DNA of 32,000 bases. Source: Zestosphaera tikiterensis. GTDB lineage: Archaea; Thermoproteota; Thermoprotei_A; Sulfolobales; NBVN01. Location: the NCBI GenBank assembly GCA_003056265.1, contig NBVN01000002.1, positions 60,001-92,000 on the forward strand, read 5' to 3'. Each line of letters begins with the position of its first letter. Positions within the stretch are counted from its first letter, which is position 1. Positions 3,414-21,203 of this stretch are shown one piece after another. The notes under the pieces are model-generated. The model saw only the letters and a program-made list of their open reading frames with translations. It ran no database searches and was not told the origin of the DNA. The translations under genes were made by a program, and so were the position numbers.

Positions 3414-3909
3414 TGAGTATGTAGGGAATTCCGGAGGCGCCGTATTTGAGGTTCTAGCTCAATCCGATAAGGGGATATTAGACGTAGATATTATGAAGAA
3501 GACAGGGCTTGACGAGCAGGAGGTTAGGAGGGTTTTATATGAGTTGCAGGCTTTAGGCATAGCTTCCTATAGGAGGGATAGGAGCCCGGAGGACGGTAGG
3601 TTCCTATACTATTGGTTTATAGATTCCGGGCGTTTAAATCAAATACTCATTCAAAGGAAGAAAGCGGTGGTTAACAAGCTTAAGGAGAGGCTTGAATACG
3701 AATCTAAAAACACTTTCTTCACATGCCCTAGAGACGGCACTAGATTAACTTTCGATGAAGCTTTAGAAAATGACTTCAAATGCCCGAAATGTGAGGGGGA
3801 GCTCGTAGCAGAAGATAACAGCGGCGTTAAGGAGTTCCTACGCTCTATGATTGCTAAGTTGGAAGAGGAAATAGCTAATGAAGAGAGGAAGATCGCCGCA
3901 CCTAGTTGA
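3370..3909 (+). CDS. tfe: transcription factor E (TFE alpha; winged helix + Zn ribbon)
   Basis: Winged-helix segment ([21 protein letters not shown]) followed by the Zn ribbon [12 protein letters not shown]...[10 protein letters not shown]. The open frame starts at 3295 inside trm56. GTG 3370 is my best guess for the start. Confidence 0.75.
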
Positions 3910-4852: not shown

Positions 4853-4854
4853 AA

Positions 4855-5331
4855 ATGGGTGGGGTTGGAAGCGGTTTAGAGTTTCTAGTGGTTTTAAATA
4901 ACGTTAACTCACCTTCAAGGCTCGTGGATTTCGTTAAGGTTGCTTTAAGCAATAATAAAGTTAAGATAGCTGCCGTAGTCGCTTCAAGAGTTTCAGGGAT
5001 GGCCGCACAGACAGGAGTTCCTGAAGCAAGTAAATACGCTATTAAGAAAAACAAAGCGTTTTTCGTACTACCAACACTTCAGGAAGTTATTGAGTTGTTA
5101 AAACCTGATAAAGTCTACATAGTAGTTAACTCTGAAGTAGCTAAGTCCTTAACTGAAGTTAAGGGTGAAATCAACGGTAGGGTAATGCTGGTTTTCAACG
5201 GTGTTGAAGGTTCGTTAAGCAAGAGTGAGTTAGCGTTGGGAGAGCATATAAGGATTGAAGATTATGAGGAAACACCTCCAGCGCCTGTATCGTTAGCTAT
5301 AGTTTTAAGAGAATTAACTAAAACCACTTAA
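4855..5331 (+). CDS. conserved hypothetical protein, possibly a SPOUT-like fold
   Basis: 158-aa ORF starting 3 nt after the methyltransferase stop. The C-terminal segment VMLVFNGVEGSLSKSELALGEHIRI...PVSLAIVLRELTK resembles the LVFG-E-GLS...I-IP...SLN-A-A-I-LYE knot region of SPOUT enzymes. This is a weak match made by eye. Confidence 0.45.
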   Translation: MGGVGSGLEFLVVLNNVNSPSRLVDFVKVALSNNKVKIAAVVASRVSGMAAQTGVPEASKYAIKKNKAFFVLPTLQEVIELLKPDKVYIVVNSEVAKSLTEVKGEINGRVMLVFNGVEGSLSKSELALGEHIRIEDYEETPPAPVSLAIVLRELTKTT

Positions 5332-5383: not shown

Positions 5384-5474
5384 AGCCGGGTCGTCTAGCG
5401 GCCAAGGATGCGGGGCTTTGGACCTTCAAGGAGGAACCCCCGTGACCGGGGTTCGAATCCCCGCCCGGCTACCA
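5384..5474 (+). tRNA. tRNA-Gln (anticodon UUG) with a ~15-nt intron in or next to the anticodon loop; CCA encoded
   Basis: Folded by hand. Acceptor AGCCGGG (5384-5390) pairs with CCCGGCT (5464-5470), followed by A73 and CCA at 5472-5474. The T arm is CGGGG-TTCGAAT-CCCCG. The anticodon stem CGGGG (5411-5415) pairs with CCCCG (5438-5442). The loop is CUUUGG with UUG at 5418-5420. About 15 extra nt (about 5422/5423 to 5436/5437) interrupt the loop. Confidence 0.85.
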
Positions 5475-5725: not shown

Positions 5726-6484
5726 TTATACCTTCGTTTTTGCTATTGTCTTTAGAGAAGCTTCAACTAATATCTTCTCAGCTTTTTTCAACTTCTTAGT
5801 TTTGAAGCCTGCTTTCCATTGATCACCGTATAGCTCGTCCGATATTGCTACTGCTACGGCGAGACGTACTCCTCGGTAGGTTGCTACAGTCATTAACGCC
5901 GTAGCCTCCATATCTACGCCTAACGCGCCAAGTCTAGAGTACTCAGCTACTTTATCCTTTGTTTCACGGTATATGGCGTCGGTGCTCCATATACCTCCTC
6001 GAAGAACTCTGATTTTCTTCCTGCCCTTAACTTCCTTTACTTCATTGTATAAAGCTTTAGCTAACTTAACGTCAGGTTTCGGTATGGTGTTGGGAGGCAT
6101 GTAGTGGTAGCTAGTTCCCTCCTCGCGTAGGCCCCACGTAGGTATTAGGATATCTCCTATTCTTAGTTTAGGGCTTAAAGCCCCAGCTTCTCCAACCATA
6201 ATGAATATCTTACCTCCACCGGCTATTAACGTCTCTAAGCCGGCGGTGGCTGCCGGTGCTCCCCAAAAAGGTAGGGTTATGAAGACTTTACTATCGTTGT
6301 AGTAGCCTTCAACAGATTTAAATAACGCTCCGCTAAATCTTACTTCTTTCTTATCCTGCAGTATTTTAGTAGCTTCCTTGAAAAGTCGGGGAGTGAGGAA
6401 TAGAAGTACTTTATCGGATGGCACTCTTTTCTTCACTATTTCGTAGGGGTTAATTACCGGTTTGTCTTCACCGATCTTAAACAC
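5726..6484 (-). CDS. nucleoside phosphorylase, PNP/UDP-1 family (uridine/purine nucleoside phosphorylase-like)
   Basis: 252-aa ORF with a GTG start. GAPAATAGLETLIAGGGKIFIMVGEAGAL, GGIWSTDAIYRET and LGALGVDMEATAL are characteristic of the PNP/UDP phosphorylase fold. Confidence 0.7.
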   Translation of the reverse strand: MFKIGEDKPVINPYEIVKKRVPSDKVLLFLTPRLFKEATKILQDKKEVRFSGALFKSVEGYYNDSKVFITLPFWGAPAATAGLETLIAGGGKIFIMVGEAGALSPKLRIGDILIPTWGLREEGTSYHYMPPNTIPKPDVKLAKALYNEVKEVKGRKKIRVLRGGIWSTDAIYRETKDKVAEYSRLGALGVDMEATALMTVATYRGVRLAVAVAISDELYGDQWKAGFKTKKLKKAEKILVEASLKTIAKTKV

Positions 6485-6687
6485 ATACCATCCCTTCCTG
6501 AAGACTTGACTTCAATTAAGTTTTCATTACTTGTTGTATGCGGTGCTTTAAAAACATTATGGCTGAAGGGGAAAAGCTTACATGCGTTACATAGTTAATG
6601 TCTTTATGATGTAGGTAAACCCTATTTCAGAAGGTGTAGGTAGTTAAGAAATGGTTTAGTTAGGCTCGGTTTTGATTAAGTATGTTT

Positions 6688-7331
6688 TTAGGTTGTGTTT
6701 TGAGTTTTAATGTATAGTGTTTTTAAATACTCTACTACGTTTTGAGGTAGTGTTTCTATTTTGCCTAGGAGTTTAGCGTGTATGTATATTTGAGCTATTT
6801 TCTCAACTAACTCAAGTACTTCAGTTGCTTCCTGTAGGTTCTTACCTACGGCTACGACTCCGTGGTTGGCTATTATTGCTGCTGACCTACCTTCTAATGC
6901 TTTAACTACTTCCTCAGCTAGTTCTTGAGTTCCTAAGGGTGCGTATTTAGTAACTTTAACGTCGCCACCAACGCGTAGGACCATCTCCTCAATTAACGGT
7001 GGTATGGGTTCCCTAACCACGGCTAAGACTGTGGTGTATGGTGCGTGAGCATGTATTACTGCGTTGATTTTACTGAACCTCCTATATATGGTTAAATGCA
7101 TTGGGGTTTCAACTGAGGGCTTGCCTGAACCTTCGATTAAACCGCCGTTTAAATCGATGACTATTAAGTCCTCAGGTTTTAAAGCGGATTTTAAGAAGCC
7201 GCTGGGCGTTATGACGACGTGGTTGGCTTCAGGTATTCTAACGCTTACGTTACCAGCCCTACCGTAGTTTAAACCCTTAACTTCTAAAAACCTTAAAACA
7301 TCAACTATAGACTCCCTAACCTCACGATACA
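6688..7331 (-). CDS. class II aldolase/adducin-family protein (fuculose-1-phosphate aldolase / MTRu-1-P dehydratase-like)
   Basis: Motifs GNVSVRI, ITPSG, ETPMHLTIYRR, AVIHAHAPYTT and IANHGVVAVGKNLQEA. The ORF track starts at TTG 7371. I prefer ATG 7331 (MYREVRESIV...), which gives a typical N-terminus. Confidence 0.75.
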
Positions 7332-7379
7332 TCAACTTAAAACCCACCCCATAAAATCGATTAAACCTCAATTAAATAA

Positions 7380-7402
7380 CTCCATATAAGACATATATGG
7401 AG
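7380..7402. promoter_or_regulatory. perfect 9-bp inverted repeat (CTCCATATA-AGACA-TATATGGAG) in the divergent promoter region
   Basis: Read directly from the sequence. It sits 31 nt upstream of the first Zn-ribbon gene start (7433) and 49 nt from the aldolase ATG (7331). The arms are TATA-like. Confidence 0.35.
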
Positions 7403-7432
7403 ATTCTACGATACAATATTAGGTGTTGTTAA

Positions 7433-7645
7433 ATGGTTAGATGCCCTACATGCGGTAGTGATAAAGTAGAAGCCGTTAAGTCTTGGGATTATAGAATGAA
7501 TAGAGTAGACACTCAATATAGAGTAACCTACTATAGATGCCTAAACTGCGGTCAGAAATTCAACCACTACGTAAGAATTAAAGGAAGTAAAGGAAGAGAG
7601 GAAATATACGTTAAACTACCACCACCTAGGAGGGTTAAGAAATGA
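7433..7645 (+). CDS. zinc-ribbon mini-protein (70 aa), paralog 1
   Basis: CPTCG...(29 aa)...CLNCGQKFNHY plus the basic tail PPPRRVKK. The same pattern occurs in the next ORF. Confidence 0.6.
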   Translation: MVRCPTCGSDKVEAVKSWDYRMNRVDTQYRVTYYRCLNCGQKFNHYVRIKGSKGREEIYVKLPPPRRVKK

Positions 7646-7854
7646 ATCAAAAAATAAAATGCCCATACTGTGGCTACGAAGGAGAAACAAACACATATAA
7701 AGAACTAAGAAAACCATGGAAATTCAGATTCTACGAAGTTAAAAGACTACAATGCCCTAAATGCGGCGGGATATTCCAACACTACATAGGAACAAGCCCA
7801 AAAGGAAAGAAATCAGAATACACCATCAGAATAAAACCAAAACCTAAGAAGTGA
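7642..7854 (+). CDS. zinc-ribbon mini-protein (70 aa), paralog 2
   Basis: CPYCG...(28 aa)...CPKCGGIFQHY plus the basic tail KPKPKK. The start ATG overlaps the stop of paralog 1 (ATGA at 7642-7645). Confidence 0.6.
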   Translation: MNQKIKCPYCGYEGETNTYKELRKPWKFRFYEVKRLQCPKCGGIFQHYIGTSPKGKKSEYTIRIKPKPKK

Positions 7855-7928
7855 GCTGACGTATATCATATTGTGGCATCTTATTTTTAATTTTTAACTA
7901 CTTTAAAGGTGTTATATATGGATCTAAC

Positions 7929-10805
7929 ATGGAAAGGAAGTTTATTGAATCTTCGGAGTTTCCGCTTGATTTAGTTAATCAAGCCTCGACTAAAGAGAAA
8001 GGTTCTGGAAGGCCTGACCATTGGGAAATGGTGTTTTGGTGGACTAGGAAACCGTTAGCAAGTGCTAGAGCCGTTATTGCTGGAGCTCTCTTACCCTATG
8101 GTATCGAAAGGAGTAGATTTAAAACTTGGCTTCGATTGGATTCAGAGAAAAGCCCGCATAGACTTAACCCTACAATACCGCAGGATATATTCGATAAATA
8201 CTTCAAAGATAAGAAAGTTTTAGATCCCTTCGCAGGTTTTGGTTCAATACCTCTTGAAGCATTAAGGTTGGGGGTTAAGGAGGTCGTAGCTGTTGAACTT
8301 CTTCCAACAGCTTATGTATTCCTTAAGGCTGTTCTCGAATACCCTAAATTTGCTGTCGAGCAAGGCCTTGGGAAAGGCTTAATAAAAGACGTTGAGGCTT
8401 GGGGTAATTGGATCCTAAATAAACTTAAGGAAGACCCTGAAATTAAAGAACTTTATGATGAGGACGTCGCAGTATATATAGGTGCGTGGGAGGTTAAATG
8501 TCCCGCTTGTGGTAAGTATTCACCCATGATAGGTAATTGGTGGTTAGCTCGCGTTAAAGATAAAGGAAGATACGCATGGATAGATTGGAACGAAGAACAT
8601 GAAGAAATAATTGTAAAAGATCTCAATAAAGAACTTAAGCAGAAAGCAGTAAAGCCCGAGGAGGTTAGCGAATCAAAAGTGAGAGTCAGGGAAATCACAT
8701 ATAAAATAAAAGAAAAGAATATAGAGCCAAGAAGTGAAACAGCTACATGTCTCCACTGCAAGGTAGAGATAAACCATAGAGTAGTTAATACCGAATTAAT
8801 AAGACCAGGTAAAGGCGATAAAAGCAAGGGGGTATGGTATTTAAAGCACGCCATAAAGGAATGGAATGAAAACCTTGAAAAATATCTAAATGGAGAAATA
8901 AGCCTGCAACAATTACTGAAGAGTGCGGCAAGACCTAAGGTATTCGTTAGAGTCAAATCAGTTAACGAAGACTTGTACTTTGAACCAGCGAAGCAAGAAG
9001 ATAATGAGAAGTTGTGGAAAGCTCTGGAAAAGCTAAAACAAATATGGGGGGACCCAGACATACCGACAGAGCTATTCGCACCTTATCAAATGGGTACAGC
9101 AGGAGCCTTAAGAATAACTCTTTGGGGTTTTGACAAGTTCTACAAGCTCTTCAATCCGCGTCAGCTCCTAACTCTAGTTAAGCTGGTCAAGCTCATACGT
9201 GAGGCAGGTAAGAGGGTTGAGGAGGAGAAGCTGAGGGAGGGCTGGAGCAAGGAAGAAGCATACAGATACGCAGAAGCAGTAACAACATACCTAGCGATAG
9301 CACTAGTTAACTTTTCAGATAATTTCAGCTTAACTACATATTGGGAAAACACATGGCTTATGCTAAAAAGAACCATGGCATTTAGAGGTATTGCAATGAC
9401 GTGGAATTGGTGCGATGCTAATCCTGTGTATAACATAACAGGTTCATGGGTTAGAAGTCTAGATAATGTAAGTGAAGGCTTGTCTTATCTTGTTTCTGCT
9501 GTTTCTGGTAGTCCTAGCAGGGTCAGGGTTCTGCTTGACGATGCTACCGTGCTCAGCAAGCTCAGCGGTGAGAAGTTTGACGTTATTGTTACCGATCCAC
9601 CGTATGCCGATGACGTGCCTTATGCTGAGTTAAGTGATTTCTACTATGTTTGGCTTAAGAGGGCTTTAAGCGATGTTGAGGGAGATAATCTTAGGCCTAG
9701 GTTCTTAAGCGAGGCTTTCTTTGACGAGTTTGGCGTTGAGATTAGAACGCAGTGGGAGGTTTACGCTAAGCGTGAGATTTCGGATAATGAGGGTAGGCGT
9801 GAATACTTTGGTCTTAGCAGGGATTTCAGCGATCTTCTAGCTGAGGCATTTGCTAACGTGCTTCAATACTTAGACTCTAACGGTGTTTTGGTCACTTATT
9901 ATGTAGCTAAGAAAGAGGAAGCTTGGGTTTCACTTATAGATGCTTTATGGAGAAGGCTTGGGTTAGTGATTTCTGCTGCTTACCCAATTCAAACAGAGTT
10001 AGAGGAAAGCGTTATTGCTAGAGGCAAGTCTTCAGTATTAGGTGGGTTTGTTATTGTTTGGCGTAAAACAGAGGGGTCAAGCAGTTATGACGTGGTTGAC
10101 TTAGCTAGTTCTGAGGATAGAGTTAAGCTAGTGAATTTTGTAGCTAATGAGTTTGAGAAGTATAGTCAATTTAGGAAATATTTCTTTATATTTTCATTTA
10201 TAGCTGGTCTTTCAACTCTTCTGAGATTTAGAGAAGTAAGGTATGGAGGGATAACTTTAAGTACCGAAAATGTGGTGATTGCGGCGTCATCTATAGGTTT
10301 TGAAGGTAGCCTTAAGTCTGTAGGTGTAGATGTTAAAGACCCGCATGCCTTAGCTTACTTACTGCTTAAGCTAGCCAGCAAGGATGGGAGTATATCGAGT
10401 GATGAATTGTCATATGTAACTTACGCCACTGGACTTAGTGATAGTGAGATGATAAAAGCAGGTTTAATTACACCAGTCGAGAGCGGAGGCCCTAAAGTAA
10501 GTAAAAGAAGAACTTACGTTGTTATTATGCCGAAAAACACTACAGCTACAGAGTTTGTATCAGCCCTCTCTAAAGTTAGAGGCAAGTCTAGGATTCTAGA
10601 AGCTTTTAGAGAAATTCAGATTGGCGCTTTAACCCCCAGCTTTAAATTTGAGAGTGTTAAGGTTAAGTACGGAGATGTAATTAACGAGGTTTTAACTTTA
10701 TGCATGGCATTAACAGAGTTAGCGAAAAGGGAGGTGTTAAGCATTGAAGACCCGGATGTTAAAACAGCTCAAGCAATCTTGAATGTACGTCTCAAACTTG
10801 TTTAG
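7929..10805 (+). CDS. DUF1156-type (COG1743-like) DNA amino-methyltransferase with inserted Zn ribbon and long C-terminal extension
   Basis: The N-terminus FPLDLVNQASTKEKGSGRPDHWEMVFWWTRKPLASARAVI matches my memory of the DUF1156 signature. The SAM motif I is LDPFAGFGSIPLEALRLG (from 8223). The Zn ribbon is CPACG...CLHC (8499-8759). Motif IV is VTDPPYADDVPYAELSDFYYVWL, with DPPY at 9594-9605. A TTTAAA box lies 26 nt upstream of the ATG. Confidence 0.85.
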   Translation: MERKFIESSEFPLDLVNQASTKEKGSGRPDHWEMVFWWTRKPLASARAVIAGALLPYGIERSRFKTWLRLDSEKSPHRLNPTIPQDIFDKYFKDKKVLDPFAGFGSIPLEALRLGVKEVVAVELLPTAYVFLKAVLEYPKFAVEQGLGKGLIKDVEAWGNWILNKLKEDPEIKELYDEDVAVYIGAWEVKCPACGKYSPMIGNWWLARVKDKGRYAWIDWNEEHEEIIVKDLNKELKQKAVKPEEVSESKVRVREITYKIKEKNIEPRSETATCLHCKVEINHRVVNTELIRPGKGDKSKGVWYLKHAIKEWNENLEKYLNGEISLQQLLKSAARPKVFVRVKSVNEDLYFEPAKQEDNEKLWKALEKLKQIWGDPDIPTELFAPYQMGTAGALRITLWGFDKFYKLFNPRQLLTLVKLVKLIREAGKRVEEEKLREGWSKEEAYRYAEAVTTYLAIALVNFSDNFSLTTYWENTWLMLKRTMAFRGIAMTWNWCDANPVYNITGSWVRSLDNVSEGLSYLVSAVSGSPSRVRVLLDDATVLSKLSGEKFDVIVTDPPYADDVPYAELSDFYYVWLKRALSDVEGDNLRPRFLSEAFFDEFGVEIRTQWEVYAKREISDNEGRREYFGLSRDFSDLLAEAFANVLQYLDSNGVLVTYYVAKKEEAWVSLIDALWRRLGLVISAAYPIQTELEESVIARGKSSVLGGFVIVWRKTEGSSSYDVVDLASSEDRVKLVNFVANEFEKYSQFRKYFFIFSFIAGLSTLLRFREVRYGGITLSTENVVIAASSIGFEGSLKSVGVDVKDPHALAYLLLKLASKDGSISSDELSYVTYATGLSDSEMIKAGLITPVESGGPKVSKRRTYVVIMPKNTTATEFVSALSKVRGKSRILEAFREIQIGALTPSFKFESVKVKYGDVINEVLTLCMALTELAKREVLSIEDPDVKTAQAILNVRLKLV

Positions 10806-10808
10806 GCG

Positions 10809-13800
10809 GTGAGTACCGTGCGCATTCTTAAAGATATTATAAAGAGTTATAAGAGAGTTGAAGAGTTAGCTGAGGGAAGGATATCCCCGCATGTTGACGT
10901 AAAGTATGTTTATGACTACCTCTTTAACTCTGTGAGACCTCCTGTTGATCATGAACATTATTGCAATAGAAGTGAGTTTCTTTCTTTAACTTACCCAACA
11001 CCTCGCATGCTTGAGTGGACTGAAGTAATTATTAGGGTTCTTGCTGGGGTCACTACAGCTAAAAACGTTTTCGTGCTTCCAGCATATTTTGGCGCCGGTA
11101 AGTCTCATTTCCTAGCTTTCCTAATACATTTAATTTCAATTTATAGTGAATGCAATGGTTTAGGAGAATGCGTTTCTAAAGAACTTAAGAAATATGGAAT
11201 CGACATAGAACTTCCTGACCTTCCTGACATTCCTCACGTTTTCTTATATCATGGAGCTCACGCCGAGGCACCTCCTTGGAGCGACGTGAGTCAAGCTTTA
11301 CCAAGTAAAGGTAGGATCCGTGAGTGGATTAGCAGAAGAAAGCCCCTCTTAATAGTTTTTGACGAGACTGGGATGTATGATGATAGATTTGGTAAAGACT
11401 TTGCCGATTATATGCAGATACTATCTGAAGCTATCGTTGAAGCTGGTGTCACACATGTCTTAGTTGTTTCTTACTCGTTGGTTGGTAGTTATATACCTGA
11501 GAGTTATGAGAGGCTTGAACGCATATCACCTATACGAGTAGATTTAGATGTAGTTAAGAACATTGTGGAGGTATTTAAGAGATGGGCTAATGTTCATGAA
11601 GAACCTGACTGTTATGAAGTTGAAGTTTCTCTAACGAGTTCGCTAGAAAAAGATACTATAAATGATTTCTGTAGTAGACTTAAGGAAACTTATCCGTTCA
11701 ACCCATTAACGCTTCGAACACTTCTTATGCTTGCTGAAGAGAGTTTAGCTAAAGCTACAAAGATACAGTTAACTAGGGGTTTGTTGCAACATATGATGAA
11801 GGCTATAAGGAATGCTGTAAAACGTGAAGGTAAACTAGTCATCCACGCAGATTTACCTGAACCACAGGAGGTTCTAATCCCGCCTGTTGAGTTTAGTAAG
11901 TTTTGGACTTCTCTCATTAATCTCTATAAAGAGGATGTTGATAAACTTAAAGTAATTACTAGTAAGCATGAGAGAATGACATTACTGTCTATGTTTAAGC
12001 ACGTATTCTTTACGAGCTTTATAGGTAGATTACTTCCGTCGAAGGAGACTTATCCAGATGAAATAAGGCTTTTACTCGGGAATTATGACCCAGCAATTGA
12101 CATGATTCAGTTGACGAATGCTAAAAGAAGTATTGACGAAGGTCATTATAGAGTGTATAAAACTGGTATAGGCTACCTTTATATGCCGGTAGTAGGGGAC
12201 ATAAACATCGTTGTTAAAAACGTCGTGGACGGATATGCTTCAGAAGATGGTCTTAAGGTAGTGACGAATGAAGTTGAACAAATAGCTAAAAGCGTTCCTA
12301 AGTTTAAATACGTAGTTGTTGCTGGCTGGAGAGACTCAGATTTAAAAGAGGGTAAGTTGATTTCCTTTGCTGACTATCGAGAAGTAGAAAGATTCTTAGC
12401 AGACCATGCAGACGAGCCTATACTTCTAGTGGATTTAAGAGGTTTAAAAATCAAGCCGCGTAGTAACTTAGCTATTGTAAAAACACAAGATGTTGAGCTT
12501 AAAAGACTTGAGGAAGCAGGTGATATATTAGAATTTTTAAGTAGATTTGCTATTACTCCGGAGAAGCTTAGTGAAGCTCTTACCTTATTAGGCAGGATTA
12601 AATGTGCTGTGGATGAAGTTTTAAATGATGTACCTAGATATTTCCCGGATGTTACTATTGTTGAGGAAGACTTTTTAAAACGTATATTAGAGGACTTTAT
12701 TAAAGCTAGGCTTAATAATATTAAAAGTAGCACATTGTCGTACATCAAGAAAGGGGTTGAGATGTGGCTTTCTAGATATTCTATAGGCAATAAAGAATTT
12801 AGTGGAGGTTTAAAACAGCTTCGTAGGTATGTGAATGAAACCTCAGCTGAAGAGATCGTTAAAAAAGTCTTAAACAGTTCCAGGAATTTCGTAAGGTTTG
12901 GAGATCTATGGAGTCAATGGTTAAACAGCGGTGAATTAGGGTACCCACTTAGTTTTCAAGATTTTGTTGATATCGCACTCAATGTATGTAAGGATGAGTG
13001 TCAATGTGTGCTAAGAGAAGGTAATAAGTATCAATGGCTTTCGGATAAGAATATCTGTGAGTATGAGAGTCCTAAGGATCCAAGAAACGCTGAGGTAGCC
13101 TTAGCATTTATAAATAAGAATCCTAATGAAGACGTAATCGAGAAGTATCTAACAGAGCTTCAAGCAGAACATCAGGAAGCTGGCATAAGAGTGTTTATAG
13201 AGTATAGTGATTACGTAACAACACGTAAAGTCCCGTTGGATCAATTCTTAATTAAGAAAACAGAATGGATTTACCTGAGAACCGCCAGAATAGTTAAGGA
13301 GAAAGTCGTCAAGCAGTTTGAAATTTCTGTAAATGGTTTAAATAAGTTGTATGTTGAAGTAAGTCGAGGTGATCCATTAACTATTGAAGTATCTTCCAAC
13401 GAAGTTTTGATGGCAGTAGAAGTTTCATTACTCGATGAGGTTGTTAAGGCTAACTTAAGTGAGAACAGGAAACGAGCGGTTGCAGAGCTTAAAGCGCCTC
13501 AAAATGCCGGTGAATATGAGCTTAAAGTTTCAGTTATCTTTGAAGATAACCACAAGGAGAATAGGTCAATCAAAGTTAAAGTTAGGGGTAGGGTTAAAGA
13601 AGAAAAAGTTAAAACAGTTATTAGTGAGAGCGATGAGGTCGTTAAGATGCGTGTCCTTTCAGCTAAAGATATAGGATATGTGTTATCAAGATTGAAAATC
13701 AATAAGAAACTCTTAGAAAATATTTCAGAGGTTGAACTTACAAGTAGTGTAAGTGGAGAAACAACTGAGCTTAATTTAAGTCTAAGTTGTAAAAGAATCG

Positions 13801-13973
13801 ATGAAAGCATTATGGACAACTTGGCAAGAGTCGTTAAAGCTTTAGAAAGCCTTACAGAAACCGTTGAAATCGAGATATGCTTTAAAACATCTATGAACCT
13901 TGAAAAAAGCTTTATTGACGCTCTCAAAACAAGAAATGTTATGTGGATTGTTTTGGAGGAAAGTGAGATATGA
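10809..13973 (+). CDS. DUF499 / BrxC(PglY)-like P-loop ATPase, 1054 aa
   Basis: The GTG start lies 3 nt after the methylase stop. TYPTPRMLEWTEVIIRVLAG, then Walker A FGAGKSH (11091-11108) and Walker B LLIVFDETG, fit the DUF499 layout as I remember it. I recognise no motif in the C-terminal ~650 aa. Confidence 0.8.
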   Translation: MSTVRILKDIIKSYKRVEELAEGRISPHVDVKYVYDYLFNSVRPPVDHEHYCNRSEFLSLTYPTPRMLEWTEVIIRVLAGVTTAKNVFVLPAYFGAGKSHFLAFLIHLISIYSECNGLGECVSKELKKYGIDIELPDLPDIPHVFLYHGAHAEAPPWSDVSQALPSKGRIREWISRRKPLLIVFDETGMYDDRFGKDFADYMQILSEAIVEAGVTHVLVVSYSLVGSYIPESYERLERISPIRVDLDVVKNIVEVFKRWANVHEEPDCYEVEVSLTSSLEKDTINDFCSRLKETYPFNPLTLRTLLMLAEESLAKATKIQLTRGLLQHMMKAIRNAVKREGKLVIHADLPEPQEVLIPPVEFSKFWTSLINLYKEDVDKLKVITSKHERMTLLSMFKHVFFTSFIGRLLPSKETYPDEIRLLLGNYDPAIDMIQLTNAKRSIDEGHYRVYKTGIGYLYMPVVGDINIVVKNVVDGYASEDGLKVVTNEVEQIAKSVPKFKYVVVAGWRDSDLKEGKLISFADYREVERFLADHADEPILLVDLRGLKIKPRSNLAIVKTQDVELKRLEEAGDILEFLSRFAITPEKLSEALTLLGRIKCAVDEVLNDVPRYFPDVTIVEEDFLKRILEDFIKARLNNIKSSTLSYIKKGVEMWLSRYSIGNKEFSGGLKQLRRYVNETSAEEIVKKVLNSSRNFVRFGDLWSQWLNSGELGYPLSFQDFVDIALNVCKDECQCVLREGNKYQWLSDKNICEYESPKDPRNAEVALAFINKNPNEDVIEKYLTELQAEHQEAGIRVFIEYSDYVTTRKVPLDQFLIKKTEWIYLRTARIVKEKVVKQFEISVNGLNKLYVEVSRGDPLTIEVSSNEVLMAVEVSLLDEVVKANLSENRKRAVAELKAPQNAGEYELKVSVIFEDNHKENRSIKVKVRGRVKEEKVKTVISESDEVVKMRVLSAKDIGYVLSRLKINKKLLENISEVELTSSVSGETTELNLSLSCKRIDESIMDNLARVVKALESLTETVEIEICFKTSMNLEKSFIDALKTRNVMWIVLEESEI

Positions 13974-14365
13974 TGGAAATACGCCCTTTACGTGAGGGTG
14001 TAAGTGTTAAATTAGGTATGATGGTAGTATATAAAAGCAGACGTATAAAGTTGGAGGAATTTTCGCAACTCTTTAACTCTTTTATCTCTTTTGAGGAGGG
14101 GAGAGATTGGGGTTTATATGGCAATATCTTGGCTGTGAAGCATCCGAATCTTGTCGAGGTAGCCCTCATATATACCGCTTTAAGGGCTGGTGGGCAAAGT
14201 CCTGAGGAGGCAAGAAAGATCGTTAATGTTATGAGGGTCTTCGAATTTAGTTCTCTTGCTTTGATATTATTGTATAGGTTATCTATCGATGAGGGTAGGT
14301 ATGGTTATAAAATGCGGAAACTTGGTAAAGCTATAGCGAAGATGTTTGAATTTGCTACTAGGTGA
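13970..14365 (+). CDS. hypothetical protein (131 aa), translationally coupled to the ATPase
   Basis: The ATG overlaps the ATPase stop (ATGA at 13970-13973), and the ORF ends 22 nt before the helicase start. No motif recognised. Confidence 0.6.
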   Translation: MMEIRPLREGVSVKLGMMVVYKSRRIKLEEFSQLFNSFISFEEGRDWGLYGNILAVKHPNLVEVALIYTALRAGGQSPEEARKIVNVMRVFEFSSLALILLYRLSIDEGRYGYKMRKLGKAIAKMFEFATR

Positions 14366-14387
14366 GTATCCATTATAGGTGACTTAA

Positions 14388-16820
14388 GTGGTTATTAGTC
14401 CGCGTGATGTTATTGAAGTGTTTAAAGCAGCTGGTAAAGAACTTTTATATCATCAAATAGACTTAGTTTCGGATTTAATACTTAAGGATAAACCTAAAGT
14501 GCTTATAGCTGATGATGTAGGTTTAGGTAAGACTATACAAGCCTTAGCCTACGTAAAACTGGTCTTAGAAGCTGGAACTGTTAGCAAGGTCTTGATCATA
14601 GTACCTACGTCTGTTTTGGATCAGTGGTTGGATGAGATGCGTTCTTTTGGTATAGATGAAGACTTAATATATGTTGTTGAAACACCGAAGATTCACGCTG
14701 GACGTCACGTATATATTGTAACTATGGATCGTGCTAAAAAGGATGAATATTTGGATGTTCTTGAAAGCATCGATTGGGATTTAATAGTTGTTGATGAGGC
14801 CCATAAAATCAGGTTTAGGACATTACGTGTGAGATTATCTTCATTAATTAACAGAGCTAGGAGATGCCTACTTTTGACTGCAACTCCACATACAGGAGAT
14901 GAGCAAAGCTTTAAATTCCTTAAGTCATTAGTATCCGACATCGTTGTTAGAAGAGAGAAAAAAGATGTTGAAAGTTATGAGGGGCGTAGAATTTTGCCTC
15001 GTCTTAGTTATTGGATAGTTAAGGTTCGTGCGAGCAATGAGGAATCTACGGCGCTTTCAAATGTGCTCAAGAAACTTAAGAACATGGAAGTAGAGCCTAT
15101 AGTTCGTTATACAGTTTTAAGGAGAGCACTTTCAAGTCCATTGTCGTTTTTAGCCACTTTAAACAAAGTTGCTGGCGGTTTCTGTAGTGAAGAAGAGCTT
15201 GATGAAATAGAGTTAGACTCTTGTCTTGCTCAAATAAGTGATAAACTTGAGGATGTAAAGACTGTAGTAAGTGACGATAGAAAGCTTGAAGTTCTTAAGG
15301 GTCTCTTAAACGGTGAGTTGAAAGGTAGGAAGCCAATTATATTTACTGAATATGCAACAACTGCGGAGTATCTTTTTGATAAATTGGTTAAAGCCTTCAG
15401 ATGTTCTGTAATTAGAGAGGGTGAGGGTTTTGGTGTAGCTGAATGTAATGGAAGGGCTTTAATGTATGTAACGGCTAAGGCTAGAAGTAACATTAGGATT
15501 AACGAAGAGGTTAGGCAGTTTTCGCTGAGGGATGGAGCTATTTTAATATCCACTGACGTCTTCTCCGAAGGTGTAAATCTTCAGGCTTTTGATGTTGTAG
15601 TTAATTATGAGGTTGTGTGGAGTCCAACTAAGCATATACAAAGGATAGGTAGGGCTTGGAGGTTTGGTCAAAAAGCTGAAGAGGTTTCAGTTATTGATGT
15701 AGCACTTGATGTAGGGTATAAGGAAAGCGAGTTCGCCATGTATACTAACTACTTAGAAAAGATCTACGAAGTTAGTCTTTATGCCCTAACACCTCATACT
15801 TATGCTGATTATGTTGTTTACAGCTCGTCTGGTAGTGAGTTAAGTAAGCTTTTTGAGCTTAGTGGGGTTCACCTAAGTAGTTTTGAAGTTTTTGAAGCTG
15901 TTTATGAAGGGAAGCTTAATGAGTTAAGGAAAAAACTTGAAAAGCTCATAGAATTGAAGGATAGGGTTAGAAGAGCTAAGGCCTCGAAGGATGTATGGAG
16001 GGATGTATGGCTTAAGTTAGGTTATAGACGAGTTGCGACGGGTAAAGTTTTAGAGCCTGGGAGTAGCTACATACTAGCTAACATAATTGTTAGGCTAGAG
16101 GAGAATAATGTGTTTAGAGAGCAAGTTTTAATCGATCTCCCTCAAGTAAAGGATAGAATAAATAAGGCTGTAGTTTACAGACAGATAGAGTTTGAAGGAG
16201 CTCGTCTTAAAGGATTAAGTGGAGAGATAAGTGCTGATGAAGCAGACGATGTTAGGAAAGTTTTAGCCAAGGAATTTGTTGAAGATTTAAAGCTTTATAT
16301 TCAGAGATTGAATGCTGGACACGTTCGACCGTTTATAGTTATAGAGGATTTACGAGGCGTTTTAGTTGATAAAGTGCTACCTATAGACGATTTTATGTTG
16401 GCTCTAAATAAAGAGCTTGACTTTAGCAATAGGAGAAGAGAGGTCGAGGAAACGGCTGTAAAGTGTATAAAGAATTACTTAATGAGTGAAGGTTTTGAAA
16501 TATATGAAGACTATTACGGAGGTCCACGAGCTTTCGACATGGTTGTTTCTAAAGGGCGTGAATTATATACCGTAGAATGTAAAGGTAGACGCATAAGACC
16601 TGGCGAACAGGTAGCTATAACGCTTACGGTGAATGAAATGGAATGGGGTCTTAGATTTCCTGAGAGACACCTCATTTGTATTGTAGAAACTTCAAGTAAG
16701 GACTTTTGTGATGTCATTGAATGTATGAAGTTTGAAGACTTTCTAAAGAAATGGGAGCTAAGGAGACAGAGGAGTTATTACGACTACATCGTTGAAGCGA
16801 TAAAGAAGCAAAATATCTGA
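14388..16820 (+). CDS. SNF2/DEAH-box superfamily-2 helicase fused to a C-terminal PD-(D/E)xK-like (DUF3883-like) domain
   Basis: Motif I is DDVGLGKT (14511-14534), Ia is IVPTSVLDQW, II is DEAH (14793-14804) and III is LLLTATPHTGD. Motif V is STDVFSEGVNLQ and VI is HIQRIGRAWRFGQ. The C-terminus has AFD(717)MVVSKGRELYTVE(730)CK(732)G...LTVNEMEW...HLICIVE. GTG start. Confidence 0.85.
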   Translation: MVISPRDVIEVFKAAGKELLYHQIDLVSDLILKDKPKVLIADDVGLGKTIQALAYVKLVLEAGTVSKVLIIVPTSVLDQWLDEMRSFGIDEDLIYVVETPKIHAGRHVYIVTMDRAKKDEYLDVLESIDWDLIVVDEAHKIRFRTLRVRLSSLINRARRCLLLTATPHTGDEQSFKFLKSLVSDIVVRREKKDVESYEGRRILPRLSYWIVKVRASNEESTALSNVLKKLKNMEVEPIVRYTVLRRALSSPLSFLATLNKVAGGFCSEEELDEIELDSCLAQISDKLEDVKTVVSDDRKLEVLKGLLNGELKGRKPIIFTEYATTAEYLFDKLVKAFRCSVIREGEGFGVAECNGRALMYVTAKARSNIRINEEVRQFSLRDGAILISTDVFSEGVNLQAFDVVVNYEVVWSPTKHIQRIGRAWRFGQKAEEVSVIDVALDVGYKESEFAMYTNYLEKIYEVSLYALTPHTYADYVVYSSSGSELSKLFELSGVHLSSFEVFEAVYEGKLNELRKKLEKLIELKDRVRRAKASKDVWRDVWLKLGYRRVATGKVLEPGSSYILANIIVRLEENNVFREQVLIDLPQVKDRINKAVVYRQIEFEGARLKGLSGEISADEADDVRKVLAKEFVEDLKLYIQRLNAGHVRPFIVIEDLRGVLVDKVLPIDDFMLALNKELDFSNRRREVEETAVKCIKNYLMSEGFEIYEDYYGGPRAFDMVVSKGRELYTVECKGRRIRPGEQVAITLTVNEMEWGLRFPERHLICIVETSSKDFCDVIECMKFEDFLKKWELRRQRSYYDYIVEAIKKQNI

Positions 16821-16932
16821 AACCGAATGGAAAATCGAATGTGTGTCTGAAGAAGAGAGTAGTTCCGTAGTAGACTCTTAACGTTTTTAACATTTTACTT
16901 AACTCTAAACTCCTTATCAAGTAGCTCAAAGA

Positions 16933-17127
16933 TTAACCCTTATTGACATTATTAATTTCCTCCTCGTCGTAGAATTTCGGGTTTAAACATATTACGTTGT
17001 ATTCCTGCTTAACGTAATTTCTATAAACTACGCAGGATTGATGGCACTTACATATCTTACGGCAGAAAATCGCTACAACACCTAAGTCCTTAAACTCATA
17101 AACGACCCTAACCTTCCTCCTACTCAA
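16933..17127 (-). CDS. possible small Cys-rich protein (64 aa)
   Basis: The ORF has a TTG start and contains CRKICKCHQSC. It is convergent with the helicase gene. No homology recognised, so it may not be expressed. Confidence 0.25.
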   Translation of the reverse strand: MSRRKVRVVYEFKDLGVVAIFCRKICKCHQSCVVYRNYVKQEYNVICLNPKFYDEEEINNVNKG

Positions 17128-17404
17128 AAACGCTCGCCTTTCTTAAGGGGGTTAGGAAGTTGAAAACGTAGATCATGCTTGCATTCAATTACCCGTAGTA
17201 AAAAGTAAGACTTGATAGTTGAATTTTATTGGGTTAAACGGGAGCTTTACCTATTGTTTCAACCTACTGAAAAGCTGATCTCGGAAACTAGGATTTCCCT
17301 ACCCTCCTAACATCCTATCTTATCCTCCTTAACTAACCCCTAACGTAATCTTAGAAAGTCTGCTGACGTTGGTTTAGCTTATGTGAGGTGTTCTTGTTGT
17401 GTCT

Positions 17405-17422
17405 TTTGATAAGCTTATCAAA
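17405..17422. repeat. perfect 18-bp palindrome TTTGATAAGCTTATCAAA
   Basis: Read directly from the sequence. It lies in a 390-bp non-coding stretch just downstream of the 3' end of the minus-strand membrane-protein gene (stop at 17518). Confidence 0.5.
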
Positions 17423-17517
17423 GACTTGAGAGTCTAATGCCTGGCGTGAAGCATAGATTAAAATGTATTGTCTTAAAATAACTTGTTTTTCTTAGCTGTG
17501 TTTTAGTTGCGTTTTGC

Positions 17518-17901
17518 TTATCTTCTTAACGCTCCCCCTACTAACCCTCCTATTGTTGTTAATATGGCGATGGTTATCGTTAAGGCTAACCCTCCCAGGA
17601 ACCCTATTGCTAAACCTATTACAGCACCTAGTAAGCCTTTTAAAACGCCTCCAAGTATTGAAAGCAGTATGCCTAAGGCTATAGCGCCTATAGATCCTGA
17701 AAGAAAACCGGCTACTAACCCTCTAGTAGCACCTCTAGCTATAAGACCGGCTATTAAACCAGATGCGAAAGGCCCTACGATAGGTATCCACCCTAAAACA
17801 AACAACGTTAAAACACCGCATAAAACACCTAAACCAACACTACCCCTACCCAAAAACACCACCCTAAAATACCTTACCTCCGTTAAGATATAACGTTTCA
17901 T
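17518..17901 (-). CDS. Gly/Ala/Leu-rich integral membrane protein (127 aa)
   Basis: ATG start. Repeated GxxxG-type hydrophobic helices (GLIAGLIARG, GAIALGILLSILGG, AVIGLAIGFLGGLALTITIAIL). The opposite strand is also open (17507-17893) but encodes a Pro/Lys/Ala-rich low-complexity product. Confidence 0.55.
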   Translation of the reverse strand: MKRYILTEVRYFRVVFLGRGSVGLGVLCGVLTLFVLGWIPIVGPFASGLIAGLIARGATRGLVAGFLSGSIGAIALGILLSILGGVLKGLLGAVIGLAIGFLGGLALTITIAILTTIGGLVGGALRR

Positions 17902-18276
17902 CTACTAAACCTCTTCAAACATGTGTTTAAGCAGTGTTTGAATTGACGATTAACGTAGACATGGTTAGGGATGGTGAGGCGAGCTACTTATAGCTTTTAT
18001 GTCCTACGTATGGATTACAATTTACTTTTATAGAGTTGCTGAGTTAAGATCTAAAATCTAACGATGTCTTAAAACCGTAAGGGTTTTGTAGCGCTATGTT
18101 TACACGTTTAAAGGGTAGTATATTCTTTGTGAATTTAATTTAAAGATTAATATATTTCAAATGTTAAAATACTTGGTGGTTAATACGTTCTCAAGCCTAA
18201 TTGTGTGGTTGGGAGATCCGCACTTAAGAAGGGGGAGTTCACCCACTTCATCGCTTTCCTATGGAGGTTGATGTAA

Positions 18277-19890
18277 GTGGGCTACACCAACTTAATTAAC
18301 AAGTTTTTAACAGCGGATTTAGTGATCGTGGGTGGTGGGTTAGCTGGTTTATCGAGTGTGTTGTTTACAGACCTATTATTTAACGATGAATTAAAAGAGC
18401 GTACATCAGTGGTTTTAATTTCTAAGTCTTCTTTAGGGTTTGCTACCTCAACTTACTACTCAGAGGGTGTTTTCCGCTGTCCAGTTAACGGTTATTCTCG
18501 CGAGGCTTATTTAAGGGATGTTTTAGAAAGTGGTAGATATGTTAATAGGAGGCCGTTAGTTAATGCTTTAGTGTCTGAGTCTTTAGAAAGTGTTTTATTG
18601 CTTGAGAAGGTGGGGATTAAGTTTAAGTCGTCTAAAGGTTTTTTACGTGTTGTTAGTGATGACCTCATATTCCCTGGTAAGGAGTTGGTTCTAGCGCTTA
18701 GGAGTTATGTATTAAGTAAAAAGAACGTTAAAATCTTAGAAAATACTTACGTTTTAGACGTTATTCTTGGAAGCAACGGTAGTTTTTACGTAATATGCTT
18801 ATCAGGTAATGGCGATTGGATCTTAATCAATAGTAAGGTAGTATTGTTAGCTACCGGCGGTGCTGCTAACGTTTACATAAGAAGTGATAATCCCTCACAA
18901 CACACGTGTGACGGACACGGCATAGCGTTAAGGTTAGGATTACCCTTAATCGATATGGAGTTTATTCAATTCTTCCCGCTAGGTATAGCGGTTGAGGGAA
19001 GACCTAGTTTAATGATAGGCTTCACTAAAGGAAAACTCGTTAATGGAAGAGGAGAGGATTTGATTAAGAAATACGGGCTTGATAGCTTAGGTAGGGCAGT
19101 GGTTTACCATAGGGATAAACTATCTAGGTATATGATGAAGGAAGTTAACGATGGTAACGACGTTAACGGTGCTTTACTGCTTTACCCAGACCTTCAAGAA
19201 GATAGGCTTTCCTCAGGATATGTTTTAATGAGGCGTCTTAACTTAAGCCCTCCTATTAAAGTCTTACCAACGGCTCACTTCTCAATGGGTGGTGTTGAAG
19301 TTGATGAGCACTGCAGAACGGCAATTAAAGGTTTTTACGCTGTAGGTGAGCTTATGGGTGGTGTTCACGGAGCTAATAGACTTGGTGGAAACGCATTAAC
19401 TGCTTGTGTGGTTTTCGCTAAGAAAGCTGTTGAAGATATTAAAAACTACATCGAAAAAGAATTTAAGGATAGCGTAGGACGTCAGGTAGATACTGAGGTT
19501 TTAAGAAACGTTATTGAGAGATATAACGTGAGAGAAGGGCCTTACGACGCCGGCAACTTAAGGAATGAAATCCGCAGTATTATGTGGAGTAAAGTAGGCG
19601 TTATAAGATCAGCGCAAACCATTAGCGAAAGCATTAATGAGCTTTCAAACATTCTTGAAAACCTACATAAGATAAGGATCGTCACCCGCCATGACGTAGT
19701 AAAATATGTGGAAGTGGAGAACACGTTATTAACGTCGTTAGCAATAGCTCACGCGTCGTTAACACGAACTGAAAGTAGGGGAAGCCATTATAGAGTTGAC
19801 TACCCAAACGAAGACCCAAACTGGATTAAAAACATAATAATCAAATACAACAACGGAAGATATACAATCAACGTAGAGCAAGTAAAGTAG
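18277..19890 (+). CDS. FAD-dependent oxidoreductase of the L-aspartate oxidase / succinate dehydrogenase flavoprotein family
   Basis: Dinucleotide fold DLVIVGGGLAGLSS, then HFSMGGVEVDEHCRT-IKGFYAVGE..GGVHGANRLGGNAL and ESRGSHYRVDYP. The size (537 aa) fits NadB-like enzymes. No nadA or nadC lies nearby, so the substrate is uncertain. GTG start. Confidence 0.75.
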   Translation: MGYTNLINKFLTADLVIVGGGLAGLSSVLFTDLLFNDELKERTSVVLISKSSLGFATSTYYSEGVFRCPVNGYSREAYLRDVLESGRYVNRRPLVNALVSESLESVLLLEKVGIKFKSSKGFLRVVSDDLIFPGKELVLALRSYVLSKKNVKILENTYVLDVILGSNGSFYVICLSGNGDWILINSKVVLLATGGAANVYIRSDNPSQHTCDGHGIALRLGLPLIDMEFIQFFPLGIAVEGRPSLMIGFTKGKLVNGRGEDLIKKYGLDSLGRAVVYHRDKLSRYMMKEVNDGNDVNGALLLYPDLQEDRLSSGYVLMRRLNLSPPIKVLPTAHFSMGGVEVDEHCRTAIKGFYAVGELMGGVHGANRLGGNALTACVVFAKKAVEDIKNYIEKEFKDSVGRQVDTEVLRNVIERYNVREGPYDAGNLRNEIRSIMWSKVGVIRSAQTISESINELSNILENLHKIRIVTRHDVVKYVEVENTLLTSLAIAHASLTRTESRGSHYRVDYPNEDPNWIKNIIIKYNNGRYTINVEQVK

Positions 19891-20052
19891 AAGACAGGAT
19901 GTGTGGCTAATTAACTTATCTTAGATTCTTCTATCAACCTAGTTTACATTTAATTAACGACTTACACTACGTAAACACTTTTGGCTCTACTTTAAGCAAT
20001 TCCCTTGCATTATTACTGAGAATCTCATTATTACGTCAAGCGGTGTGGGAGC

Positions 20053-21038: not shown

Positions 21039-21203
21039 ATGGCTAGAATCATGAGTTTTAGGGCTAGGATCACGAGGCATGGAACTGCTAGGGGGAGACC
21101 TAGATACGCGGTCCTGATCCCCATGGAGTTGAGTGAGAAGGTGGAGAAGGAGGGTTGGATTCATAGGGAGGTCGAGGTGATAATTGTTGAGCCAGATGCC
21201 TAG
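21039..21203 (+). CDS. small ORF (54 aa), possibly an AbrB/SpoVT-like DNA binder
   Basis: Too short for the ORF track. It translates as MARIMSFRARITRHGTARGRPRYAVLIPMELSEKVEKEGWIHREVEVIIVEPDA. Its stop (TAG 21201-21203) overlaps the ATG (21196) of the TnpB-like gene. The R-x-Y-V-x-IP-x-EL-x-EKV pattern recalls swapped-hairpin AbrB-type domains, but the match is weak. Confidence 0.4.
   Translation: MARIMSFRARITRHGTARGRPRYAVLIPMELSEKVEKEGWIHREVEVIIVEPDA

Follow-up and report, generated by a model that had tools for sequence, protein, structure and literature searches.

A probable Hma-type defence cassette of Thermoproteota with a conserved small fourth gene

We analysed a 32,000-nucleotide stretch of DNA (the window; contig NBVN01000002.1, positions 60,001 to 92,000) from a metagenome-assembled genome (MAG) of the archaeon Zestosphaera tikiterensis (Thermoproteota, order Desulfurococcales). 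The window contains a cassette of four genes, here called genes 1 to 4, with predicted products that are a DNA methyltransferase, an ATPase, a small basic protein and a helicase-nuclease. We found that the cassette is very probably a Thermoproteota version of Hma, a restriction-modification (R-M)-like antiviral operon that is also classified as the Type-1 DUF499-centred BREX-related (BR) system. The system itself has already been described. The new points are a conserved small fourth gene with an unmatched fold, the lack of a Tudor domain in the helicase, an ATPase missed by the models, and a virus-borne homologue of gene 3.

The operon of a COG1743 methylase, a DUF499 protein and a SWI2/SNF2-nuclease, in that order, was described in diverse archaea by Bell in 2020 (PMC7641849). 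The trio was named Hma (helicase-methylase-ATPase) by Payne in 2021 and found in 26 phyla (PMC8565338). Liu (2024) reported that Halomonas HmaA protects Escherichia coli from T4 by means of helicase motif VI and the nuclease, and that nicking by NOV_C is required (PMC11232893). Within the family, only this bacterial helicase-nuclease has been tested experimentally (PMC11232893). Rakesh and Krishnan (2026) renamed the group 'DUF499-centred BREX-related systems' and divided it into three types, with a Tudor-Snf2-REase helicase in Type 1, an HKD-helicase plus DUF3780 in Type 2, and PglZ and iSTAND but no nuclease in Type 3 (PMC12839542). We found no mention of the clade of Thermofilum, Pyrobaculum and Zestosphaera in the text and accessible supplements of that paper.

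The cassette had first been described from its letters alone (the sequence-only reading), as BREX-like parts without PglZ that fit no defined system. The description was correct and corresponds to an already published class (PMC12839542). The conclusion does not stand, since the parts are those of Hma (PMC8565338), or 'BREX-related Type-1' (PMC12839542). A helicase-methylase-ATPase label from genomic surveys that the same reading mentioned proved to be the named system Hma. Its use of DUF499 as the hallmark of BrxC needs correction: BrxC is best matched by DUF6079, and DUF499 is a sister family (PMC12839542).

The product of gene 1 matched Pfam DUF1156 (E = 5.9e-11) and the PADLOC models MTase_II (PDLC03352, a REBASE-type model; 1.6e-206) and HmaB (1.7e-55). 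It also matched NCBIfam DUF1156_antiphage (3.7e-31), far under the cut-off of that model. Motif I (FAGFG, residues 101-105) and motif IV (DPPY, 556-559) are followed by a long C-terminal region. Between the two motifs, the target-recognition insert contains a predicted zinc ribbon of four cysteines (C191, C194, C274 and C277; CPAC at 191 and CLHC at 274). These cysteines, FxGxG and DPPY are invariant across four methylase orthologues (52-63% identity). The gene had been taken for a DUF1156 amino-methyltransferase with an inserted ribbon, and the model matches agree. Homologues of DUF1156 were found in 186 plasmid records.

Gene 4 encodes a Swi2/Snf2 helicase with a predicted C-terminal nuclease, also as proposed earlier. 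Its product matched Pfam SNF2-rel_dom (1.2e-20), Helicase_C (7.2e-17) and ResIII, and its top PADLOC model was HmaA (5e-40; residues 16-182 align with positions 102-285 of the profile). PADLOC models for BrxHI/II (1e-36) and DrmD (7e-36) matched as well. Matches to PLD_Helicase and phospholipD_antiphage were limited to the helicase core (residues 277-513), and Pfam found no PLD domain. We located motif I (GLGKT, 45-49), motif II (DEAH, 136-139), motif VI (QRIGRAWR, 418-425) and a predicted nuclease triad, D717/E730/K732, that is invariant across five helicase orthologues (41-56% identity).

We found that the helicase lacks the N-terminal Tudor domain (~90-100 aa) of canonical HmaA and RapA, and that the SNF2 core starts at once. 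RapA is the closest solved protein (7e-19), and residue 18 of the gene 4 product aligned to its residue 153. The motif-I threonine is T49 in gene 4 and T136 in Halomonas HmaA. Given these offsets, and the alignment of residue 16 to HmaA position 102, there is no room for a Tudor domain in gene 4. Canonical HmaA has about 1150 aa (PMC11232893), as against 810 aa here.

Gene 2 required indirect evidence. Its product carries a Walker A motif (GAGKSH, residues 95-100) and a Walker B motif (DE, 185-186), both invariant in nine ATPases of the clade. It had no Pfam (E ≤ 10), PADLOC or NCBIfam match apart from chance-level matches to CopC and Glyco_hydro_2 on a beta-sandwich, and no match among the sequences of the Protein Data Bank (PDB). 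Only 8 homologues were found among 5.8 billion proteins, and a profile built from the ATPase alignment, searched against a word-indexed database, gave no further relatives beyond the same 8 proteins. Of the nine clade ATPases, four matched Pfam DUF499 (best 1.8e-8) and six matched PADLOC HmaC (best 1.2e-6). With hhalign, the clade profile aligned to a RefSeq-annotated DUF499 protein (locus L009) with a probability of 98.9% (E = 2.9e-17, 395 columns), and the alignment took in Walker A, Walker B and the motifs YPF(N/H)P and Q(L/R)TRG(L/A)L. That protein comes from a bacterial locus with genes for a helicase and a DUF1156 methylase as well. The match of the ATPase profile to a Type-2 DUF499 protein was weaker (E = 8e-5, 124 columns).

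The predicted structure of the ATPase pointed in the same direction. In the AlphaFold2 (AF2) model (predicted local distance difference test score, pLDDT, 82), together with Foldseek searches, the C-terminus is an immunoglobulin (Ig)-like beta-sandwich followed by an RRM-like domain. An RRM-like C-terminus has been described for DUF499 proteins (PMC12839542). The N-terminal half matched BrxC (9zdx_A and 9zll_A; TM 0.44-0.46), ORC and other AAA+ proteins, and the beta-sandwich matched Ig-like domains. The UniRef name of the product is 'DUF499 domain-containing'. Based on the matches of the clade members, the hhalign alignment, the RRM-like terminus and the BrxC/ORC fold match, we assign gene 2 to the DUF499 family. 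The DUF499-like layout claimed in the sequence-only reading thus held, by these routes and not through a direct hidden Markov model (HMM) match. The motifs that it named in the three large proteins (FxGxG, DPPY, CPxC...CxxC, GAGKSH, DE, DEAH and D717/E730/K732) were all found at the residues given and are conserved in orthologues.

Among the described types, the cassette is closest to Type 1, given its type of nuclease, the absence of PglZ, HKD and DUF3780, and the model scores. HmaB ranked above the Type-2 methylase models and HmaA above PLD_Helicase, and the ATPase fits the L009 DUF499 protein far better than Type-2 DUF499. All three core proteins are shared with Hma/Type 1: the N6-methylase has DUF1156 and a zinc-ribbon insert for target recognition, the AAA+ ATPase is of the DUF499 family and ends in an RRM-like domain, and the Swi2/Snf2 helicase has a predicted C-terminal PD-(D/E)xK/NOV_C nuclease. 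The lack of PglZ and the gene order of the archaeal operon in PMC7641849 are shared as well. In contrast to Hma/Type 1, the cassette has an ATPase too divergent for the HmaC and DUF499 models, a shorter helicase without the N-terminal Tudor domain, and an Ig-like beta-sandwich before the RRM, a trait reported mainly for Type 2. The fourth gene, conserved and overlapping, is a further difference, as Type 1 is described with only three genes (PMC12839542).

Type-2 BR systems consist of DUF499, DUF3780, DUF1156 and an HKD/PLD-helicase (PMC12839542), and are represented in NCBIfam by 'anti-phage-associated DUF1156' and 'phospholipase D-like anti-phage protein'. Like them, the cassette has a helicase without a Tudor domain (listed as a defining Type 2 trait; PMC12839542), a small alpha+beta protein encoded on its own within the core locus, and a beta-sandwich before the RRM of the ATPase. 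Unlike them, it has no HKD/PLD domain, its nuclease is a predicted C-terminal PD-(D/E)xK domain, its small protein has no sequence similarity to DUF3780, and its ATPase profile is weaker against Type-2 DUF499. The likeness to Type-3 BREX/BR lies in the BrxC-like fold of the ATPase, the RapA/BrxHII-like SNF2 helicase and an amino-methylase with an inserted target-recognition domain. However, Type-3 BREX comprises BrxC, BrxXI, BrxHII and PglZ, and the cassette in its window has no PglZ, BrxA, BrxB/iSTAND or BrxL; its helicase has its own predicted nuclease, and its methylase has a DUF1156 N-terminus. With DISARM (DrmA, DrmB, DrmC/DrmD, DrmMI/II) the cassette shares an SNF2 helicase and a methylase. 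The DrmD match of gene 4, however, covers only the SNF2 core (130.7 bits, versus an NCBIfam cut-off of 610), and the window contains no DUF1998 (DrmB), DrmA or PLD (DrmC) gene.

Searches for the missing genes agreed with the sequence-only reading. No PglZ, PLD, DUF1998 or BrxL gene was found among window open reading frames (ORFs) of at least 80 aa or in the flanks of six related loci. For PglZ, this included the called genes 7-10 kb around the six related cassettes, among them a region of the complete Thermofilum pendens genome.

The genes are linked in other Thermoproteota. The order methylase-ATPase-small gene-helicase recurs in Zestosphaera, T. pendens, two Pyrobaculum MAGs and three metagenome contigs, and persists while ATPase identity drops to 29-33%. 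Surroundings differ between the related loci, and some contain toxin-antitoxin or defence genes. Linkage and placement in defence islands had been suggested as a check on the original reading; the shared order was found, with defence neighbours in some relatives, and the flanks in the window itself are housekeeping genes.

Some of the related loci deserve description. In the closest metagenomic relative (L001:601-21014; ATPase 47% identical), the stretch around the cassette resembles a defence island and contains a 1228-aa UvrD/AAA_30 helicase, a MazE-like antitoxin gene directly 5' of the methylase gene, a 905-aa protein of unknown function, and an AAA_15/DUF3696 ATPase with a 138-aa partner. 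The neighbours in L002 include PIN and HEPN/NTase genes. In L006 (3893-7144) and L007, the gene for the helicase-nuclease points the other way and converges with the ATPase/small-gene pair, and an extra 149-aa gene precedes the helicase gene. The small gene stays behind the ATPase gene in both despite the inversion.

A more distant locus was seen on the conjugative Klebsiella pneumoniae plasmid pKP18-231-2 (L010:1515-14078), in a region present on 28 Klebsiella plasmid records. This locus, of the Hma type but with genes embedded in it, encodes in order DUF499, a hypothetical protein, SIR2, an ATP-binding protein, DUF1156, a 166-aa hypothetical protein and SNF2. The small ORF that precedes its helicase gene (166 aa) is not homologous to gene 3.

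We found that gene 3, previously listed simply as a 131-aa unknown, is conserved next to the ATPase gene. A homologue (108-156 aa) lies directly 3' of the ATPase gene in 11/11 loci (the window, L001, L002-L004 from T. pendens, L005, L006/L007, L008, and L018/L019 from Pyrobaculum MAGs) and between the ATPase and helicase genes in 9/11. Its start overlaps or abuts the ATPase stop in each of the eleven. Divergence of the two proteins runs in parallel, with identities of 48/48/19-22/19% for gene 3 and 47/42/33/30% for the ATPase. The cassette-borne members are basic (pI 9.5-10). The AF2 model of gene 3 (pLDDT 86.6, predicted TM-score 0.84) has three strands, a helix and two strands at the N-terminus (residues 2-56), then a four-helix bundle (59-125). 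The 131-aa gene is, on this comparative evidence, the most distinctive part of the locus and a real conserved gene, not a stray ORF.

For gene 3, we found no match in Pfam, PADLOC, NCBIfam or PHROGs, and gene 3 and 13 relatives had no Pfam match at E ≤ 10. The predicted fold had no significant Foldseek match in the PDB (best E 0.73) or BFVD (0.09), with all TM scores below 0.4. The N-terminal beta unit might conceivably be a split-off Tudor/SH3-like barrel. Two candidate relationships were rejected: hhalign gave a probability of 0.1% against a RefSeq DUF3780 protein, and about 0.1% against the small ORF of the Klebsiella Hma-like locus. The family comprised 17 proteins in a word-indexed search and 16 clusters at 50% identity in an exhaustive HMMER profile search of 1.84 billion representatives, which reached no larger family. 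All named members are Thermoproteota.

More distant members of the gene 3 family sit outside Hma cassettes. One free-standing homologue (P0031; profile E 6.8e-21) was found at L015:6344-6775 and L016:8001-8432 (ERZ27249335 k141_22182 and ERZ27249296 k141_40388). Its contig of ~20 kb carries an integrase fragment, a Dam-type methylase gene, many ORFans and homologues of two conserved genes of the Globuloviridae (PSV gp03/TTSV1 gp04 and PSV gp21/TTSV1 gp11). This globulovirus-like copy keeps the invariant residues of the family (E30, Y68, R72, E92 and R103), and P0031 may be a viral mimic of a subunit of the defence system. No homologue was found when the six-frame ORFs of the cultured globuloviruses PSV and TTSV1 were searched with an HMM, and neither a tblastn search of gene 3 against 50,697 phage records nor a scan of IMG/VR with the virus-like subgroup found any. 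A second homologue (P0038, E 1.9e-6; L012:7985-8446 and L013:7302-7763) lies between dCTP deaminase/dUTPase and ribonucleotide reductase genes, with no defence cassette. A third (P0033, 398 aa; L014:204-1400, metagenome 3300005800) has two tandem gene 3 domains behind a low-complexity N-terminus, on a short contig without visible Hma genes.

We propose a mechanistic scheme for the cassette, to which we give an even chance of being right. The DUF1156 methyltransferase would read a DNA motif through its zinc-ribbon insert and N6-methylate host adenine as a self mark. The BrxC/ORC-like DUF499 AAA+ ATPase would assemble on DNA, where its variable beta-sandwich and RRM-like C-terminal domains would sense unmodified or invading DNA, and after sensing it would license the effector. 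The SNF2 motor would translocate on the licensed DNA, and the C-terminal PD-(D/E)xK domain would nick or cut it. The gene 3 protein may be a clade-specific, stoichiometric fourth subunit, made in step with the ATPase. Its constant position next to the ATPase gene, the start/stop overlap, the parallel divergence, the confident AF2 model and the basic pI all suggest a subunit. We infer that its most likely role would be that of an adaptor, or a 'reader' of DNA or its modification, that couples the ATPase to the Tudor-less helicase. A logic in which the methylase marks, the ATPase senses and the helicase-nuclease restricts has also been proposed elsewhere (PMC7641849, PMC12839542). Assignment to the Hma family combined with this mechanism is the best explanation that we can offer for the cassette as a whole, and we consider it likely.

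Several points weigh against this explanation. We know of no methylation motif, target or phenotype for the cassette or any archaeal member, and of no member of the family with a known methylation motif. No curated model recognises gene 2. The NOV_C match of gene 4 (residues 687-771, E 0.0027) is under the Pfam threshold (18.2 versus 22.1 bits); it exactly covers the invariant D/E/K triad. The immediate flanks of the cassette in the window contain housekeeping genes and no defence island. Homologues of gene 3 also exist alone, outside cassettes, and embedded genes, many of them functionally independent, occur in 62.7% of 1,485 Hma systems. HmaA protected E. coli from T4 on its own, and that study did not settle what HmaB and HmaC do (PMC11232893). 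The notion that the methylase marks self and the ATPase senses is still hypothetical family-wide because the sole experiment is that one, in which HmaA alone protects.

The protection by HmaA alone, which cut T4 propagation about 100-fold, raises the alternative that the helicase-nuclease is a self-sufficient sensor and effector, and that the methylase and ATPase regulate it, act in a toxin/antitoxin-like manner or defend independently. The authors of that work say that HmaB and HmaC may act independently (PMC11232893), and toxin-antitoxin-like logic for the operon has been discussed (PMC7641849). However, thousands of taxa show strict linkage of the three genes (PMC12839542), catalytic motifs are conserved in each of the three large cassette proteins, and the parallel with Type-3 BREX (BrxC, BrxXI, BrxHII) favours a joint machine. 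We regard a self-sufficient nuclease as possible and doubtful. Somewhat less probable still is that gene 3 is an embedded passenger (an independent regulator, antitoxin-like, or a separate defence or anti-defence gene) and no subunit. The frequency of embedded genes in Hma systems would fit a passenger, as would the homologues that stand alone on the globulovirus-like contig, beside ribonucleotide reductase/dUTPase genes or as a tandem duplication, and the non-homologous small ORFs at similar positions in other Hma-type loci, such as the one in Klebsiella. Embedded genes are sporadic, however, whereas gene 3 lies behind the ATPase gene in every clade member read, down to about 30% ATPase identity. 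Its frame overlaps those of its neighbours, its divergence tracks theirs, and it remains with the ATPase gene where the helicase gene is inverted. At the other extreme, gene 3 could be an obligatory, new-fold fourth subunit that replaces the Tudor reader, with the globulovirus-borne homologues being captured decoys that poison the complex; we think this distinctly unlikely.

Two further alternatives would remove the cassette from Hma altogether, and both seem to us highly improbable. The cassette might be part of a split Type-3 BR/BREX system with PglZ (and iSTAND/BrxB) elsewhere in the genome, as the window covers just 32 kb of a 644-kb contig. The ATPase fold does match BrxC, which binds BrxB and PglZ in the solved complex 9zll. 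But Type-3 BR helicases have lost the nuclease and their core locus has PglZ (PMC12839542), whereas the cassette helicase keeps an invariant PD-(D/E)xK triad, and PglZ was found neither in the window nor among the called genes 7-10 kb around the cassettes of the six relatives. The other alternative is a role outside defence, for example in replication or gene regulation, in which a RapA-like transcription or chromatin remodeller would work with an epigenetic methylase and an ORC-like ATPase. Among solved proteins, the nearest relatives are indeed RapA, chromatin remodellers and ORC/Cdc6, and the window flanks are housekeeping genes. In contrast, the 8 ATPase homologues are scattered patchily over Thermoproteota, the GC content of the cassette is below that of its flanks, a 99%-identical copy occurs in another context, and some relatives have toxin-antitoxin or defence neighbours. 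The conserved predicted nuclease is fused to the helicase, and a bacterial homologue has proven antiphage activity (PMC11232893). An Hma-type defence system remains our preferred reading.

The layout of the cassette fits a single crenarchaeal operon, with a TATA-like promoter, overlaps, Shine-Dalgarno (SD)-like motifs and a T5 tract (Table 1). Four same-strand genes had been reported with an ATGA overlap and a 22-nt gap, and both the ORF list and the sequence agree: genes 2 and 3 share an ATGA stop/start, and a 22-nt spacer separates genes 3 and 4. The products of genes 2, 3 and 4 are identical to GenBank PUA33139-PUA33141. The 3-nt gap reported between genes 1 and 2 is right as the letters read (TAG-GCG-GTG). 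However, the true start of gene 2 is probably the GTG at 10818 (1051 aa) and not that at 10809, since GGTGA-N5 precedes it, as at gene 4, and GenBank PUA33139.1 has 1051 aa. The gap to gene 1 would therefore be 12 nt. A TATA-like A/T block lies 10-27 nt 5' of the gene 1 ATG, and this spacing, by comparison with crenarchaeal promoters, implies that gene 1 would be leaderless or near-leaderless; the internal genes of the operon would use SD motifs. A scan for bacterial sigma-70 promoters and terminators was also run and is uninformative for archaeal DNA.

Table 1. Features of the cassette, in window coordinates
Feature	Position	Strand	Basis
Gene 1, DUF1156 (COG1743) N6-adenine-type DNA methyltransferase, HmaB-like, 958 aa	7929..10805	+	Pfam, PADLOC, motifs
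Gene 2, divergent DUF499-family (HmaC-like, BrxC-like) AAA+/STAND ATPase, 1054 aa as an ORF	10809..13973 (likely start 10818)	+	clade members, hhalign, fold
Gene 3, conserved small basic protein, 130-131 aa (ORF 131 aa), isoelectric point (pI) 9.8	13970..14365	+	conserved position, AF2
Gene 4, Swi2/Snf2 (RapA-like) helicase with predicted C-terminal PD-(D/E)xK (NOV_C-like) nuclease, HmaA-like, 810 aa	14388..16820	+	Pfam, PADLOC, alignment
Putative archaeal promoter	7884..7928	+	A/T-rich TATA-like elements TTTAAAGG (7902-7909) and TTATATAT (7912-7919); read from sequence
GGTGA-N5-GTG, 5' of gene 2	10808-10820	+	same arrangement as at gene 4
SD-like GGTGA, 5 nt 5' of gene 4 GTG	14378..14382	+	read from sequence
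T5 tract, possible archaeal transcription-termination signal, 64 nt past gene 4 stop	16884..16888	+	read from sequence

The surroundings of the cassette point to recent mobility or to a variable region. The GC content is 38.7% in the cassette and 43-44% in the flanks. A metagenome contig (L008) is 98.96% identical in DNA sequence to window positions 9550-17900 and then diverges fully (breakpoint at window 17900/L008:8350), continuing into DUF3368 (PIN-like) and UPF0175 toxin-antitoxin genes where the window continues into a flavoprotein gene. Based on the lower GC content and this 99%-identical copy in a different downstream context, we suggest a horizontal origin. The divergence between L008 and the window is a strain-level breakpoint just 3' of the cassette. 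The low-GC stretch (36-40%) spans window positions 6000-20000, beyond the four genes to about 20000, and GC is 43-49% elsewhere in the window. As signatures of integration, we found no att-like direct repeats, and the end of the sole tRNA gene in the window (tRNA-Gln, 5384-5474) is not repeated around the cassette.

Genes further out were also identified. The upstream flank encodes Lsm, an HflX-type GTPase, aTrm56, an MTAP-like phosphorylase and a class II aldolase; the downstream flank encodes the flavoprotein, PspC, ETF and an acyl-CoA dehydrogenase. About 2.6 kb 5' of the cassette (window 3878-5331) are genes for a Dcm-type C5-cytosine DNA methylase (324 aa, Pfam 2.4e-52) and, after 2 nt, a DUF2122 'RecB-family nuclease' (158 aa, 4.1e-28); together they may form another small pair with an R-M-like or repair role. 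The tRNA gene, tRNA-Gln(TTG), directly follows the DUF2122 gene and at 91 nt is long enough for an intron. A 364-aa ORF at 21184-22278 had no Pfam match and weak matches to PADLOC Cas12f/Cas14 (TnpB-like) models (6.5e-4), and may be a remnant of a TnpB-type transposon-associated nuclease.

These findings open no new class of immunity, as the system is already catalogued. They indicate that a Thermoproteota branch of Hma/BR escapes the Pfam and PADLOC models. With gene 2 unseen by curated models, PADLOC-type tools would not call the system, and a census of archaeal defence would undercount the branch because its ATPase is too divergent for current models. The loss of the Tudor domain together with a fixed small basic protein mirrors Type 2, which has no Tudor domain and has DUF3780 instead, and may hint at how the machine is assembled; one possible explanation is that the complex has an exchangeable 'reader/adaptor' position. 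Because T. pendens Hrk5, which has the same four genes, is in culture, both the methylation motif and the make-up of the complex could be worked out there directly. To our knowledge, almost no virus-encoded counter-defences are known in hyperthermophilic archaea, and the gene 3 homologue on the globulovirus-like contig is a testable lead for one. If that homologue were indeed a decoy, such proteins would be the first known to act against Hma, and also the first against an archaeal R-M-like system.

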